Sequence record: MW882907
Source: Escherichia phage vB_EcoM_SQ17
Reading direction: 5' to 3' (one strand)
DNA: 64,000 nucleotides
Every line of letters begins with the position of its first letter. The stretch's first letter is position 1. The notes under the pieces were generated by a model. The model was not told the origin of the DNA and did no database searches. It worked only from the letters and a program-made list of their open reading frames with translations. Position numbers and translations under genes: made by a program. Below are positions 2,618-38,550 of this stretch, piece after piece.

Positions 2618-4600
2618 ATGGCACTTCTCTCTCCGGGCGTTGAGCTCAAAGAAACTACCGTACAGAGTACTGTAGTTAATAACTCCACTGGTACTGCTGC
2701 CCTGGCTGGAAAATTCCAATGGGGACCTGCATTCCAGATTAAACAAATCACTGATGAAGTTGCATTAGTTGATATGTTTGGTACTCCTAATACAGATACA
2801 GCAGATTATTTCATGTCTGCTATGAACTTCCTTCAATATGGTAATGACCTTCGTGTTGTACGCGCAGTTGATCGTGATACTGCTAAGAACTCATCTCCTG
2901 TAGCAGGCAATATTGAATTCACAATCTCTGCTGCTGGTAGTAACTATGCAGTTGGTGATAAAATTATCGTTAAGTATTTGACCGAAACTGTTGAAGCAGA
3001 TGGTTATGTCACTTCAGTTGATGTCGATGGTAAAATTCTTAACATTTATATCCCAACCGGTAAAATTATTGCTCGTGCAAAAGAAATTAATGAATATCCG
3101 GCATTGGGTTCTAACTGGACCGCCGAAGTTGCCAGTTCTTCTTCTGGACTCTCTGGCGTTATTACAATTGGTTCTATCGTAACCGATTCAGGTATTCTGT
3201 TAACTGAAGTTGAAACTTCTGAAGAAGCTATTACTTCTCTAACTTTCCAAGAATCTATTAAAAAATATGATGTCCCAGGCGTAGTTGCTCTTTATCCTGG
3301 TGAACTTGGCGACCAGCTCGAAATTGAAATCGTATCTAAAGCAGACTATGACAAAGGTGCTTCAGCCCAGTTAAAAATTTATCCTGATGGTGGTACTCGT
3401 GCATCTACTGCTAAAGCAATCTTTGGGTATGGCCCACAAACTGATGACCAATATGCAATTATCGTTCGTCGTAACGATGCTGTAGTTCAGAGCGTAATTC
3501 TTTCTACTAAACGTGGTGAACGCGATATTTATGGTAGTAATATCTTTATTGATGATTTCTTTGCTAAAGGCGCAAGCAATTATATTTTCGCTACTGCACA
3601 AGGTTGGCCAAAAGGTTTCTCTGGCGTAATCAAACTGGGTGGCGGCTTATCATCTAATGAAACGGTTGACGCTGGTGATTTAATGGAAGCTTGGGATTTG
3701 TTTGCTGACCGCGAATCTGTTAATGCGCAGTTGTTTATTGCCGGTTCTTGTGCAGGTGAATCTTTAGAAGTTGCTTCTACAGTTCAGAAACATGTTGTAG
3801 CAATTGGTGATTCTCGCCAAGATTGCTTGGTTCTTTGCTCACCGCCACGTGCAACTATAGTCGGTATTCCTGTTAATCGTGCAGTTGATAATCTGGTTGA
3901 TTGGCGTACTGCGTCAGGAACTTACACTGATAATAACTTTAATGTAAGTTCTACTTACGCTGCTATTGACGGTAACTATAAATATCAATATGATAAATAT
4001 AATGATGTGAATCGTTGGGTTCCGTTAGCTGCTGATATCGCCGGTCTTTGTGCTCGCACAGACAATATTTCTCAGCCTTGGATGTCTCCTGCTGGTTATA
4101 ACCGTGGTCAAATTCTTAACGTTATTAAGCTTGCAATTGAAACTCGCCAACCACAGCGTGATCGTTTGTATCAAGAAGCTATTAACCCTGTTACTGGTAC
4201 CGGTGGTGATGGGTATGTTCTGTACGGTGATAAAACTGCCACTTCTGTTCCTTCACCATTTGACCGTATTAACGTTCGTCGTTTGTTCAATATGGTTAAA
4301 ACGAACATTGGTTCAGCATCTAAATATCGCCTGTTTGAATTGAACAACGCATTCACCCGTTCTTCTTTCCGTACAGAGACTTCCCAGTATCTACAGGGTA
4401 TTAAAGCTCTCGGTGGTGTATATAACTTTAAAGTTGTTTGTGATACTACCAATAACACCCCAGCAGTTATCGACCGTAATGAATTTGTAGCTACTTTCTA
4501 CTTACAACCTGCCCGCTCGATAAATTATATTACGTTGAACTTTGTAGCAACAGCAACTGGTGCCGATTTCGACGAACTAATTGGTGCTGTAGGTGGCTAA
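2618..4600 (+). CDS. 18: Tail sheath protein gp18
   Basis: 660 aa; N-terminus MALLSPGVELKETTVQSTVVNNSTGTAALAGKFQWGP matches T4 gp18; late promoter TATAAATA upstream. Confidence 0.97.
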   Translation: MALLSPGVELKETTVQSTVVNNSTGTAALAGKFQWGPAFQIKQITDEVALVDMFGTPNTDTADYFMSAMNFLQYGNDLRVVRAVDRDTAKNSSPVAGNIEFTISAAGSNYAVGDKIIVKYLTETVEADGYVTSVDVDGKILNIYIPTGKIIARAKEINEYPALGSNWTAEVASSSSGLSGVITIGSIVTDSGILLTEVETSEEAITSLTFQESIKKYDVPGVVALYPGELGDQLEIEIVSKADYDKGASAQLKIYPDGGTRASTAKAIFGYGPQTDDQYAIIVRRNDAVVQSVILSTKRGERDIYGSNIFIDDFFAKGASNYIFATAQGWPKGFSGVIKLGGGLSSNETVDAGDLMEAWDLFADRESVNAQLFIAGSCAGESLEVASTVQKHVVAIGDSRQDCLVLCSPPRATIVGIPVNRAVDNLVDWRTASGTYTDNNFNVSSTYAAIDGNYKYQYDKYNDVNRWVPLAADIAGLCARTDNISQPWMSPAGYNRGQILNVIKLAIETRQPQRDRLYQEAINPVTGTGGDGYVLYGDKTATSVPSPFDRINVRRLFNMVKTNIGSASKYRLFELNNAFTRSSFRTETSQYLQGIKALGGVYNFKVVCDTTNNTPAVIDRNEFVATFYLQPARSINYITLNFVATATGADFDELIGAVGG

Positions 4601-4611
4601 TAAGACGCCTG

Positions 4612-4633
4612 ATGGGCTATTTCGGTAGCCCAT
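4612..4633 (+). terminator. RNA stem-loop after gene 18 (ATGGGCTA-TTTCGG-TAGCCCAT); possible terminator or processing site
   Basis: 8-bp perfect inverted repeat abutting the gene 19 late promoter. Confidence 0.4.
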
Positions 4634-4640
4634 ATAAATA
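4633..4640 (+). promoter_or_regulatory. T4 late promoter core TATAAATA for gene 19
   Basis: Exact TATAAATA upstream of gene 19. Confidence 0.6.
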
Positions 4641-4712
4641 TATTATATCGTTTAAAAATTAATTCTATGGGCATCAGGTTAATCCTAAGCCCATATTACT
4701 ACAGAGGCTAAT

Positions 4713-5204
4713 ATGTTTGTAGATGACGTAACTCGTGCCTTCGAATCAGGTGATTTCGCTCGCCCTAACCTATTCGAAGTAGAAATCTCTTATCTTGGGC
4801 AAAACTTTAGCTTCCAGTGTCGTGCTACGGCTCTTCCTGCTGCGATCGTTGAAAAGGTTCCTGTTTCTTATATGAACCGTAAAATTAACGTGGCCGGTGA
4901 CCGTACATTCGATGATTGGACTATTACAGTAATGAACGACGATGCTCATAGTATTCGTCAGAAATTTGTTGATTGGCAAGGTATTGCAGCAGGACAAGGT
5001 AATGAAATTACCGGCGGTAAACCTGCTGAATATAAAAAGACTGCTATCGTTCGTCAATTTGCTCGTGATGCTAAAACTGTCACTAAAGAAGTTGAAATTG
5101 TTGGCTTGTGGCCTACTAACGTTGGTGAAGTATCTCTTGACTGGGACAGCAATAACGAGATTGAAACGTTCGAAGTAACTCTTGCTCTTGATTGGTGGGA
5201 ATAA
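4713..5204 (+). CDS. 19: Tail tube protein gp19
   Basis: 163 aa as in T4 gp19; follows gp18; late promoter upstream. Confidence 0.93.
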   Translation: MFVDDVTRAFESGDFARPNLFEVEISYLGQNFSFQCRATALPAAIVEKVPVSYMNRKINVAGDRTFDDWTITVMNDDAHSIRQKFVDWQGIAAGQGNEITGGKPAEYKKTAIVRQFARDAKTVTKEVEIVGLWPTNVGEVSLDWDSNNEIETFEVTLALDWWE

Positions 5205-34804: not shown

Positions 34805-35375
34805 AAAAGTTTCGGATTTGTTCCCAATTCAGAGAACGAAGATTATTACGAGAGTACTGAATTACTTCAATACCGGCTTGTTTTAGAATGTCTGCCCAAT
34901 TTTCAGGAGATCGATCGTATAATTCTGCGTATACAACCTTTTTAATACCTGACTGAGTAATAGCTTTAGTGCAATCAGGACATGGAGAAAGCGTCGTATA
35001 TAACGTAGCACCTTCAATAGAATTACCTTTACGAGCTGCAAACAAAATTGCATTCAATTCTGCATGGATTTCATTATTAGCAGACCATGCACTATGAGCG
35101 GCCCGATGTTCTTTAGCCAAAACAAAATTATCTGCCCGTCCAAATGCTGTAGTGCCTTCTTTATGTCCAGCAACGATGACCGGGCTTGGTTTATTCTTCA
35201 ACCAACCATTTTCGGATGCATGTTCACAACAGTTAACGCCACCTGCTGGTGAGCCATTATATCCAGTAGAGATAATGCGTCCATCTTTTTCAATGACGGC
35301 ACCAACTTTCCATGAACAACATTTTGATTCTTGAGAAATCAGATATGCAATCTGAAGGTATGTGCTAGCTTTCAT
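34794..35375 (-). CDS. cd: dCMP deaminase
   Basis: 193 aa as T4 Cd; zinc-binding deaminase motifs HAELNAI and SPCPDC. Confidence 0.95.
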   Translation of the reverse strand: MKASTYLQIAYLISQESKCCSWKVGAVIEKDGRIISTGYNGSPAGGVNCCEHASENGWLKNKPSPVIVAGHKEGTTAFGRADNFVLAKEHRAAHSAWSANNEIHAELNAILFAARKGNSIEGATLYTTLSPCPDCTKAITQSGIKKVVYAELYDRSPENWADILKQAGIEVIQYSRNNLRSLNWEQIRNFCGE

Positions 35376-36367
35376 TATTGAACCTTATTAATATAAGTTA
35401 ACAGCTCTTTAGTTTGTTCCCAACTGATGCACGCATCGGTAACGGAAACGCCATAGGACATATTATCAGAAATTTTTTGATTTCCTTCATGTAGGAATGA
35501 TTCTATCATAATTCCTTTGACCAAATCATTAGCTGCTAAATTTTTACCAATACCAATTTGATTGCTATAATACCCATCAGCGTTTGCATGGCTACAGTCA
35601 ACCATTACATAATGATTCAGACCTACTGCCCTTGCTTTGTTAGAAGCTTCTTGAATATCAGAAGAATGATAGTTCGGGCCGTTAGTCCCGCCACGCAATA
35701 CGATATGCGTATTCTGATTACCTTCAGCTTCAACAATGCCTACAGTACCATCGACGTCCATACCCATATACCGATGAGGCCAGGCGGCACTATACATCGC
35801 GTCTGTAGCTACTTTAATAGAACCATTGGTTGCGTTCTTGAAGCCTACGCACATCGGTAGACCTGAAGCAATTTCACGATGTGTCTGACTTTCAGTCGTA
35901 CGGGCGCCAATAGCAACCCATGAGAAAATACCAGAAAGATACTTAATCGTGAATGGGTCTAATACTTCAGTTGCTAATGGAAGTCCCATACGTAGAAGTT
36001 TACGACACAATGTTCGTGCAACTATAAGACCGTGGTTCATATCAAAACTTCCGTCAAGATATGGATCATTTACAAGACCTTTCCAACCTACGGTAGTTCG
36101 AGGCTTTTCAAAATAAACGCGCATCACTAACAGAACATTAGGAAGATGAGTTTGAAGTTCAGCCAGACGTTTGCCGTATTCAACAGCAGCAATAGGGTCA
36201 TGAATTGAACAAGGACCTACAACAATAAGTTTGCGTGGGTCTTCACCATTCATAATCGAATTAACTTGTTCGCGATGAGAAGCCACTTGTGATGCGTAAG
36301 CTTCCGACAAAGGAATAATCTCAGCCAGTTCTTTTGGAGAAATAAGTTTTCTGATGACAGGTAACAT
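35375..36367 (-). CDS. 3-deoxy-D-arabino-heptulosonate-7-phosphate (DAHP) synthase, class I (AroG/AroF/AroH-like), N-terminally short
   Basis: 330 aa; conserved class-I DAHPS blocks GPCSIHDP, KPRTTVGWKGL, GARTTESQ.HRE, D.SHAN; RBS AAGGA upstream; stop overlaps cd start (TAATG). Confidence 0.85.
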   Translation of the reverse strand: MLPVIRKLISPKELAEIIPLSEAYASQVASHREQVNSIMNGEDPRKLIVVGPCSIHDPIAAVEYGKRLAELQTHLPNVLLVMRVYFEKPRTTVGWKGLVNDPYLDGSFDMNHGLIVARTLCRKLLRMGLPLATEVLDPFTIKYLSGIFSWVAIGARTTESQTHREIASGLPMCVGFKNATNGSIKVATDAMYSAAWPHRYMGMDVDGTVGIVEAEGNQNTHIVLRGGTNGPNYHSSDIQEASNKARAVGLNHYVMVDCSHANADGYYSNQIGIGKNLAANDLVKGIMIESFLHEGNQKISDNMSYGVSVTDACISWEQTKELLTYINKVQ

Positions 36368-36487
36368 AACAATCCTTAGGAGATATAAACAGATTCTGAT
36401 TCAACAATACCTTTAACCGGATTAGACAGGCTAAGTTGGTAGTGCTCAGATTTATGACCATTCTCGATAGTAATGAGATAGCTCTCA

Positions 36488-36724
36488 TTATAGTGTTCCA
36501 TATACTCGAGTTGCTTCAACAAGACCATCACTGCCTAATTTAAGATTAGTAATTTGGTCACCATCTTTAGGATTAACGATTATGAGAAAAGAACGTGGAG
36601 ATTCTTGAATAACTCGTAATGTTGCATCTTGGAAACGTTCAGACACTTTATTGATGAGTGCTTGAGCAAATTCTTTTACTTTAATCTGAAATTCGTGTAC
36701 TGTAATTGGGTTTTCACTTAGCAT
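36488..36724 (-). CDS. Hypothetical protein (cd.x region)
   Basis: 78-aa ORF with early promoter upstream. Confidence 0.5.
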   Translation of the reverse strand: MLSENPITVHEFQIKVKEFAQALINKVSERFQDATLRVIQESPRSFLIIVNPKDGDQITNLKLGSDGLVEATRVYGTL

Positions 36725-36752: not shown

Positions 36753-36782
36753 ATAGTATCACAACTCCACCATGTTGTAAAC
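36753..36782 (-). promoter_or_regulatory. T4-type early promoter (minus strand)
   Basis: Plus ATAGTA, 18 nt, GTAAAC. Confidence 0.5.

Positions 36783-37463: not shown

Positions 37464-37464
<1 letters not shown>
37273..37464 (-). CDS. Hypothetical protein (cd.x region)
   Basis: 63-aa acidic ORF directly downstream of pseT. Confidence 0.5.

Positions 37465-38550
<1,086 letters not shown>

Follow-up and report, generated by a model that had tools for sequence, protein, structure and literature searches.

The first step of the shikimate pathway is catalysed in Escherichia coli by the DAHP synthases AroF, AroG and AroH (DAHP being the 7-phosphate of 3-deoxy-D-arabino-heptulosonate), and the way in which aromatic amino acids inhibit them has been mapped by mutation. 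Phe-sensitive AroG becomes fully Phe-resistant through P150L, further resistant variants are S180F, A202T, F209A/S and V221A, residues Q151/Q152 and S180/S181 contact the inhibitor main chain, and salt-bridge residues of the D155 type stabilise the inhibitor site (PMC9529685). Tyr-sensitive AroF (PDB 6agm/6agl) is rendered Tyr-insensitive by replacement of P148 or Q152 (PMC5791370), and deletion of Ile11 alone has the same effect (PMC5791370; PMC10729320). Phage members of the family, grouped as phrog_5045, are found in JS09, HX01, ST0, F2, Mizar, PEi20, CHI14, Marfa and PM2. Here we analysed a 64,000-nucleotide stretch of Escherichia phage vB_EcoM_SQ17 (record MW882907; hereafter the window), whose minus strand carries a DAHP synthase gene (DAHPS) beside cd, the dCMP deaminase gene. 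This gene shares its locus and signature residues with the phrog_5045 enzymes, from which it does not differ materially, and is thus one further copy of that family. As a discovery it matters little; the point worth an experiment is that the pocket for the aromatic inhibitor is rewritten in the whole phage clade.

The 330-aa product of DAHPS is a bona fide, selected type I-alpha DAHP synthase. A first-pass annotation, made from the letters alone, had recognised a class I enzyme by its hallmark blocks (GPCSIHDP, KPRTTVGWKGL, GARTTESQTHRE and DCSHAN), and both the open reading frame (ORF) and the blocks were confirmed exactly as described. Profile matches were far above chance, with PF00793 (Pfam DAHP_synth_1) at E=7.7e-75 and 251.7 bits (cutoff 25.5), and the NCBIfam models TIGR00034, the aroFGH equivalog, at 426.5 bits (cutoff 173.2) and NF009395 at 454.4 bits (cutoff 343). 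The models specific for AroH (385 < 463) and AroG (363 < 568) stayed below their cutoffs, and no KdsA model was among the NCBIfam matches. The profile of phrog_5045, filed in PHROGs under 'moron, auxiliary metabolic gene and host takeover', matched at 605 bits, residues 1-330 covering its positions 8-337 of 341. By sequence, the nearest solved structure is that of E. coli AroF (354 bits), followed by Neisseria meningitidis DAH7PS and AroG, and the identity to K-12 AroF, AroG and AroH amounts to 51, 48 and 44%, respectively.

All elements of the active site are retained. The metal tetrad C53, H260, E289 and D311 corresponds to AroG C61, H268, E302 and D326, and the residues binding phosphoenolpyruvate (PEP) and erythrose-4-phosphate (E4P), namely R83, K88, R90, R156, K177 and R225, correspond to AroG R92, K97, R99, R165, K186 and R234; T91 is also present, and the KPRT(T/S) motif reads KPRTTVGWKGL. 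Among 30 phage-clade and 98 bacterial homologues, no variation was seen at these metal and substrate ligands, which are common also to AroF. From an alignment of 58 sequences, AlphaFold2 predicted a (beta/alpha)8 barrel with type-I decorations (mean confidence pLDDT 93.3, pTM 0.92). Foldseek superimposed the model on 4hso, 5cks and 1kfl with a TM score of 0.96 and a root-mean-square deviation (rmsd) of 1.4 Å over approximately 334 columns, and the AroG structures 1kfl, 1qr7 and 1gg1 gave TM 0.95-0.96 and an rmsd of about 1.5 Å. The pairwise ratio of nonsynonymous to synonymous substitution rates (dN/dS) among phage copies is 0.12-0.26, with similar values for the neighbouring cd. Given the profiles, the intact catalytic residues, the fold and these ratios, the protein is not a pseudoenzyme; a missing profile match or lost metal ligands, which the first-pass annotation had named as fatal to its assignment, were not found. 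The phage enzyme would be expected to catalyse the committed entry into the shikimate pathway, in which PEP and E4P condense to DAHP and phosphate.

Comparison with AroG and AroF revealed a different situation at the inhibitor pocket. AroG residues P150, Q151, S180, A202 and F209 are replaced by I, K, P, S and Y in the phage enzyme, where I141, K142, P171 and Y200 occupy positions 150, 151, 180 and 209; in AroF numbering, the changes include P151 to I, Q152 to K, D156 to G and S181 to P. The substitutions P150I, Q151K, S180P and F209Y are present in every phage-clade sequence, whereas the 98 nearest bacterial homologues keep P, Q, S and F. All alignment columns were scanned for positions at least 90% fixed in phages and at least 90% fixed to another residue in the 98 bacterial homologues. 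Only seven columns passed, AroG 150, 151, 155, 156, 180, 209 and 223, all located in or beside the pocket. They define the phage signature I-K-G-I-P-Y-A, in which the salt-bridge residue D155 has become Gly. The phage enzyme, 48% identical to AroG, differs naturally where engineered resistance maps (P150L, S180F, D146N, A202T), though D146 itself is kept. Its changes are natural, multiple and clade-fixed, whereas the engineered AroG alleles are single mutations.

The N-terminus differs as well. It is 8 residues shorter than that of AroG and 9 shorter than that of AroF, and not 17-20 residues shorter than AroG, as had been estimated in the first-pass annotation; the other part of the 20-26 aa length gap consists of internal deletions of 5 and 3 aa and a shorter C-terminus, and the two deletions and the shorter C-terminus also distinguish the phage enzyme from AroF, outside whose clade it lies. 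No in-frame alternative start exists between the ATG and the preceding stop, and the start residue is common to all phage homologues (MLPV.../MLPL.../MRPL...). The residues equivalent to AroG 2-9, including D6-D7-L8 of AroG and the N8 region of AroF, are missing in every phage-clade sequence. In the AroG-Phe structure (1KFL), the N-terminal region with D6, D7 and I10 is reported to belong to the lid that the partner subunit places on the inhibitor pocket. Since the inhibitor pocket itself is rewritten, a deregulated enzyme is more plausible than before. Judging from the aligned residues, the response to Tyr, Phe and Trp appears altered and, with the N-terminal contact segment missing, probably lost.

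The gene has been kept at one locus for a long time. The order pseT, small ORFs, DAHPS, none to two small ORFs, cd, 31.x, 31 and rIII is conserved across the genera Mosigvirus, Kanagawavirus (Entb_45, PEi26), Marfavirus, Winklervirus (CHI14) and Bragavirus (PM2). A 29-kb metagenomic T4-like contig has the order pseT-DAHPS-cd too, and the deepest-branching DAHPS relative is also carried by T4-like contigs. In the tree, the phage enzymes group together with 99/100 bootstrap support, as a single clade outside enterobacterial AroF, AroG and AroH. As the first-pass annotation had stated, DAHPS lies in the cd-pseT interval, where T4 has only the small ORFs cd.1-cd.5 and no DAHPS. Its picture of an insertion, acquired in an accessory region, is misleading, and a recent insertion is not what we see: the clade is single, the slot conserved, and the gene is old and vertically kept in at least five genera, its loss from RB69 being secondary. 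One old acquisition followed by vertical descent and occasional loss is the parsimonious reading of these alignments and trees. T4 cd.1 was considered as a relic of DAHPS and rejected (E=12). T4 Cd.1 (T4 segment 2697-3035) is homologous to a CHI14 ORF (3498-3839) lying between DAHPS and cd (30% identity, E=1e-10); therefore, the ancestral order was likely cd.2-DAHPS-cd.1-cd, with cd.1 lost in Mosigviruses. In Proteus phage PM2, a homing endonuclease gene (segment 1106-1822) is found between pseT and DAHPS, which marks the pseT-DAHPS interval as a hotspot for mobile insertions.

RB69, the type Mosigvirus, has no DAHPS, and its cd follows directly after cd.2. A megablast search with the cd-DAHPS-cd.2 block returned 139 full-length records and a small class with 43% coverage made up of RB69, moha and mar005P1. 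DAHPS is retained in 139 of about 150 close relatives, i.e., in about 93% of Mosigviruses. Since RB69 and a few relatives have lost the segment holding it, the gene is dispensable. A degenerate duplicate of the cd start flanks this segment (36477-36488, minus strand, ATGAGAGCTATC, versus 35364-35375, minus strand, ATGAAAGCTAGC), and both copies are preceded by TAATG-type junctions. This arrangement fits a deletion in RB69 through short-repeat recombination or, as well, a footprint of the original insertion.

DAHPS starts with an ATG at 36367-36365 and ends with a TAA at 35377-35375. Its G+C content, 40.7%, compares with 38.2% on average for the window. On the minus strand, the sequence around the start is CTAAGGATTGTTATG, where an AAGGA (36377-36373) precedes the ATG with a 5-nt spacing, and that at the end is GTTCAATAATGAAAGC, where the last A of the TAA is the first base of the ATG (35375-35373) of cd, the directly downstream neighbour. 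The ribosome-binding site and the TAATG overlap of the first-pass annotation are thus present in the sequence, but its translational coupling to cd fared less well. The cd gene has its own AAGG Shine-Dalgarno sequence, annotated in Mizar; in the corresponding 13-kb region of Mizar, overlaps occur at 11 of the 28 gene junctions, including three of the 1-nt TAATG type; and in other genera DAHPS and cd abut, leave a 2-nt gap, overlap by 4 nt or have small ORFs between them. The overlap is real but unremarkable, and coupling to cd can be inferred from it at most.

DAHPS is part of a cluster of T4 prereplicative genes that run in the same direction on the minus strand. The T4 record has an early promoter, Pe133295, annotated between cd.3 and cd.2, and this intergenic region is near base-for-base identical in the window, Mizar, RB69 and T4 (GTTTAC...TGATA(C/T)TAT). 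The homologous promoter-like site lies approximately 390 nt upstream of DAHPS, with no terminator predicted between it (36781-36753) and the gene. Since pattern scans for promoters, terminators and MotA boxes gave counts equal to chance, the site carries weight only through its homology to the annotated T4 promoter. DAHPS would most likely be transcribed early, together with cd.2 and cd, from this conserved early promoter.

We favour, with moderate confidence, the following explanation as a whole. A large T4-like (Straboviridae) branch has carried DAHPS, expected to encode a competent enzyme, vertically in the cd.2-cd slot and would express it early; its clade kept the whole active site, rewrote the pocket for aromatic amino acids and lost the N-terminal segment with which the neighbouring subunit closes this pocket. 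As the most probable consequence, the enzyme would no longer be inhibited by Tyr, Phe or Trp. It would also be free of host transcriptional control by TyrR and TrpR, and carbon flow to chorismate and aromatic amino acids could be kept up after the shut-off of host gene expression. On balance, we lean slightly towards regarding the phage enzyme as a naturally evolved shikimate gatekeeper, feedback-blind or re-wired, of single origin, long kept in one Straboviridae branch and expressed early alongside genes of nucleotide metabolism, which would make it a viral means of overruling the control that the host exerts on the aromatic pathway. If true, this would be a clear case of a virulent enterobacterial phage overriding the regulation of an amino-acid pathway, beyond nucleotide supply. 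For aromatic-compound bioproduction, it would supply a naturally occurring model of DAHP synthases that resist feedback, with the seven-residue signature and the truncated N-terminus as a design and RB69 as a natural null.

Several observations weigh against this explanation. Among 150 diverse family representatives drawn from an exhaustive search, in which the catalytic residues are invariant, Q151 is found in 83 and S180 in 96, with Pro at the latter position in 22, and an N-terminus of at most 12 residues occurs in 14; the full phage pocket combination occurs in none. Since the pocket positions vary family-wide, the phage pattern is a departure from its nearest relatives and not proof of lost regulation, and an initial description of the signature as unique was softened. 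F209Y is a conservative change, and P138 and G202 (AroG positions 147 and 211) are still the AroF-type Pro and Gly. The phage pocket could bind another ligand. RB69, moha and mar005P1 live without the gene, yet RB69 grows well in the laboratory, so that any benefit of DAHPS would be conditional; T4, equally AT-rich, has no DAHPS either. The promoter scan as a whole was at chance (14 sites found versus 14.4 expected), and searches of the accessible literature collection returned no functional study of a phage DAHP synthase. The feedback insensitivity proposed in the first-pass annotation has thus gained support from the rewritten pocket and the missing N-terminal segment, while the family-wide variation leaves it something that we infer. 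A higher demand for aromatic residues was considered as a reason for keeping the gene and set aside: Phe, Tyr and Trp make up 9.5% of the residues in window ORFs and about 8.2% in E. coli, a weak and non-discriminating difference since T4 does without the gene.

The same pocket residues could also be read as those of an active enzyme that has been re-regulated, its remodelled pocket answering another effector such as a nucleotide, a chorismate-derived compound or a phage-specific metabolite. This reading rests on Lys in place of Gln151, Pro in place of Ser180 and Gly in place of Asp155. The seven substitutions are 90-100% conserved across phage sequences down to about 56% identity, a strictness that resembles selection for a new pocket and not decay, and the variation of these positions across the family is consistent with lineage-specific effectors. 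On the other hand, part of the pocket is gone together with the N-terminal lid, changes such as Pro at S180 and Gly at D155 typically destabilise the site, and no candidate ligand is pointed to by the data. We regard re-regulation as unlikely, although it deserves to be taken seriously. At the opposite end, DAHPS could be a moron taken recently from a host, or encode a pseudoenzyme in decay, in either case without any phage role, which would suit the absence from T4 and RB69, the hyperplastic small-ORF region and the dispensability of the gene. This is hardly credible. The tree, which places the enzyme outside the enterobacterial clades, and its 44-51% identity to E. coli AroH, AroG and AroF rule out recent host capture, and the intact catalytic residues together with selection (dN/dS 0.12-0.26) rule out a pseudoenzyme; moreover, the clade spans at least five genera at a conserved position, the G+C content is 40.7% against 38.2%, and the gene is kept in 139 of about 150 relatives.

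A link to DNA modification was weighed as well. Phages with arabinosyl-5-hydroxycytosine divert ribulose-5-phosphate through a phage arabinose-5-phosphate isomerase (PMC13326640), and DAHPS might serve them as an E4P/PEP sink that draws flux toward ribulose-5-phosphate and arabinose-5-phosphate, or might itself use arabinose-5-phosphate in the manner of 3-deoxy-D-manno-octulosonate 8-phosphate (KDO8P) synthase. Five of the six DAHPS-bearing genera belong to Straboviridae groups reported with 5-hydroxycytosine or arabinosylation genes, the modification is reported for Serratia phages, which come from the same host group as the sixth genus (Winklervirus CHI14) (PMC13326640), and the phiC120 genome paper loosely ties the domain to lipopolysaccharide synthesis (PMC8022965). 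However, RB69 DNA is fully arabinosylated without DAHPS, which largely refutes the link. The isomerase occurs with no genuine DAHPS in 57 Acinetobacter and 6 Yersinia phage records, DAHPS is present in about 25 Klebsiella phages and the isomerase in at most 3 Klebsiella records, and the arabinosylation papers do not mention DAHPS. Because of RB69 and this two-way mismatch, we take the co-distribution as phylogenetic and not functional. KdsA, the KDO8P synthase on another branch of the PF00793 superfamily, has the TIM-barrel PEP-aldolase chemistry in common with the phage enzyme. Its motif is of the KANRS type rather than KPRTT, whereas the window protein has KPRTT, a Cys metal ligand and an aroFGH equivalog score; with no KdsA model matched, it does not qualify as a KDO8P synthase. 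A role in arabinosylation is very improbable. The approximately 25 Klebsiella phages with DAHPS are of the Marfavirus type; Marfaviruses are listed as 5-hydroxycytosine phages, and the sugar-donor pathway of these Klebsiella phages may differ.

The phage gene is an already known, annotated auxiliary metabolic gene. A tblastn search with the protein returned 212 phage records, 139 at 95% identity or more, 47 at 60-80% and 26 below 60%. The first group consists of Mosigviruses (HX01, JS09, ST0, F2, Mizar and others), and the window, too, comes from a Mosigvirus, about 99% identical to phages HX01 and ST0. The window enzyme is 97.6-99.4% identical to the 139 Mosigvirus-type records and 55-77% identical to those of other genera. 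In most records the gene already bears a name such as DAHP synthase, 'phospho-2-dehydro-3-deoxyheptonate aldolase', AroG or aroF. With routine annotation in close relatives, which the first-pass annotation itself had taken as decisive against novelty, and with a PHROG of its own, the novelty entertained there fails. Such annotations in GenBank records of RB69-like phages are more than 10 years old; the domain also receives a brief mention in the phiC120 genome paper (PMC8022965).

Table 1. Features of the DAHPS locus in the 64,000-nucleotide window (positions in the window).
Feature	Position	Strand	Evidence or equivalence
DAHP synthase gene, 330 aa, type I-alpha, AroF-like	35375..36367	minus	ORF, profiles, AlphaFold2 model, Foldseek, phrog_5045
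Rewritten inhibitor-pocket helix, codons 141-147 (I141 K142 ... G146 I147)	35927..35947	minus	AroG P150 Q151 ... D155 L156
Codon P171	35855..35857	minus	AroG S180 / AroF S181, inhibitor main-chain contact
Codons Y200 to A214, beta6a/6b pocket hairpin	35726..35770	minus	AroG F209 to T223; Y and A clade-fixed
Segment absent from RB69, moha and mar005P1, 1,094 bp, DAHPS and most of the small ORF	35379..36472		blastn, junctions, megablast
Shine-Dalgarno AAGGA	36373..36377	minus	direct sequence reading; ribosome-binding site annotated at the same place in phage Mizar
TAATG stop/start overlap, DAHPS/cd	35373..35377	minus	direct sequence; 1-nt overlap also annotated in Mizar
Sigma-70-type promoter-like site, TTTACA-17-TACTAT with TG	36753..36781	minus	homologue of the T4 cd.3/cd.2 early promoter
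cd, dCMP deaminase, 193 aa	34794..35375	minus	PF00383 E=1.5e-26; annotated in Mizar, RB69, T4
Small ORF just upstream of DAHPS, 50 aa	36376..36528	minus	annotated in Mizar; phrog_15876, 110 bits, unknown function
cd.2 homologue (DUF7320), 78 aa	36488..36724	minus	PF24005 E=1.5e-35; close to RB69 Cd.2
pseT polynucleotide kinase/phosphatase, upstream landmark	37464..38363	minus	PF25109 and PF13671; Mizar annotation

Among the neighbouring genes, the 50-aa ORF upstream of DAHPS shares 41 nt with the 3' end of cd.2 and falls for the most part into the segment that RB69 lacks; Kanagawavirus and Marfavirus have no such ORF at the matching position. The annotated cd of RB69 (NC_004928, segment 7743-8252) codes for 169 aa, compared with 193 aa in the window and T4. 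The RB69 and window proteins are near-identical until about codon 165, where ..ILKPSWY* is found in RB69 and ..ILKQAGIEVIQ.. in the window. This suggests a frameshift or a sequencing error in the RB69 record, for which the arabinosylation paper reports comparable split ORFs. ARAGORN found no tRNA genes in the window (1-64000).

Database matches outside the clade were of several kinds. Those to 'Acinetobacter phage MD-2021a' and to a 2.4-kb 'Salmonella phage' were discarded as bacterial or uninformative contigs; CAKLQH020000056.1 and CAKLQH020000001.1, both under the former name, carry cobS, cobT and kdsD, and one is 328 kb long. Such mislabelled bacterial contigs inflate phage match counts for metabolic genes. 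Aeromonas phage HJ05 (79 kb, non-T4-like) encodes at 3899-5062 a distant 387-aa homologue (38% identity), annotated only as hypothetical. This protein is extended at length at its N-terminus, keeps the catalytic residues intact and likewise has Pro at the S180 position; it was probably acquired independently. Another homologue, at about 35% identity, is present in human-faecal 'Bacteriophage sp.' contigs. The top match of the search for family representatives was a tandem or fused enzyme of 799 aa, in which two DAHP-synthase stretches were recognised.

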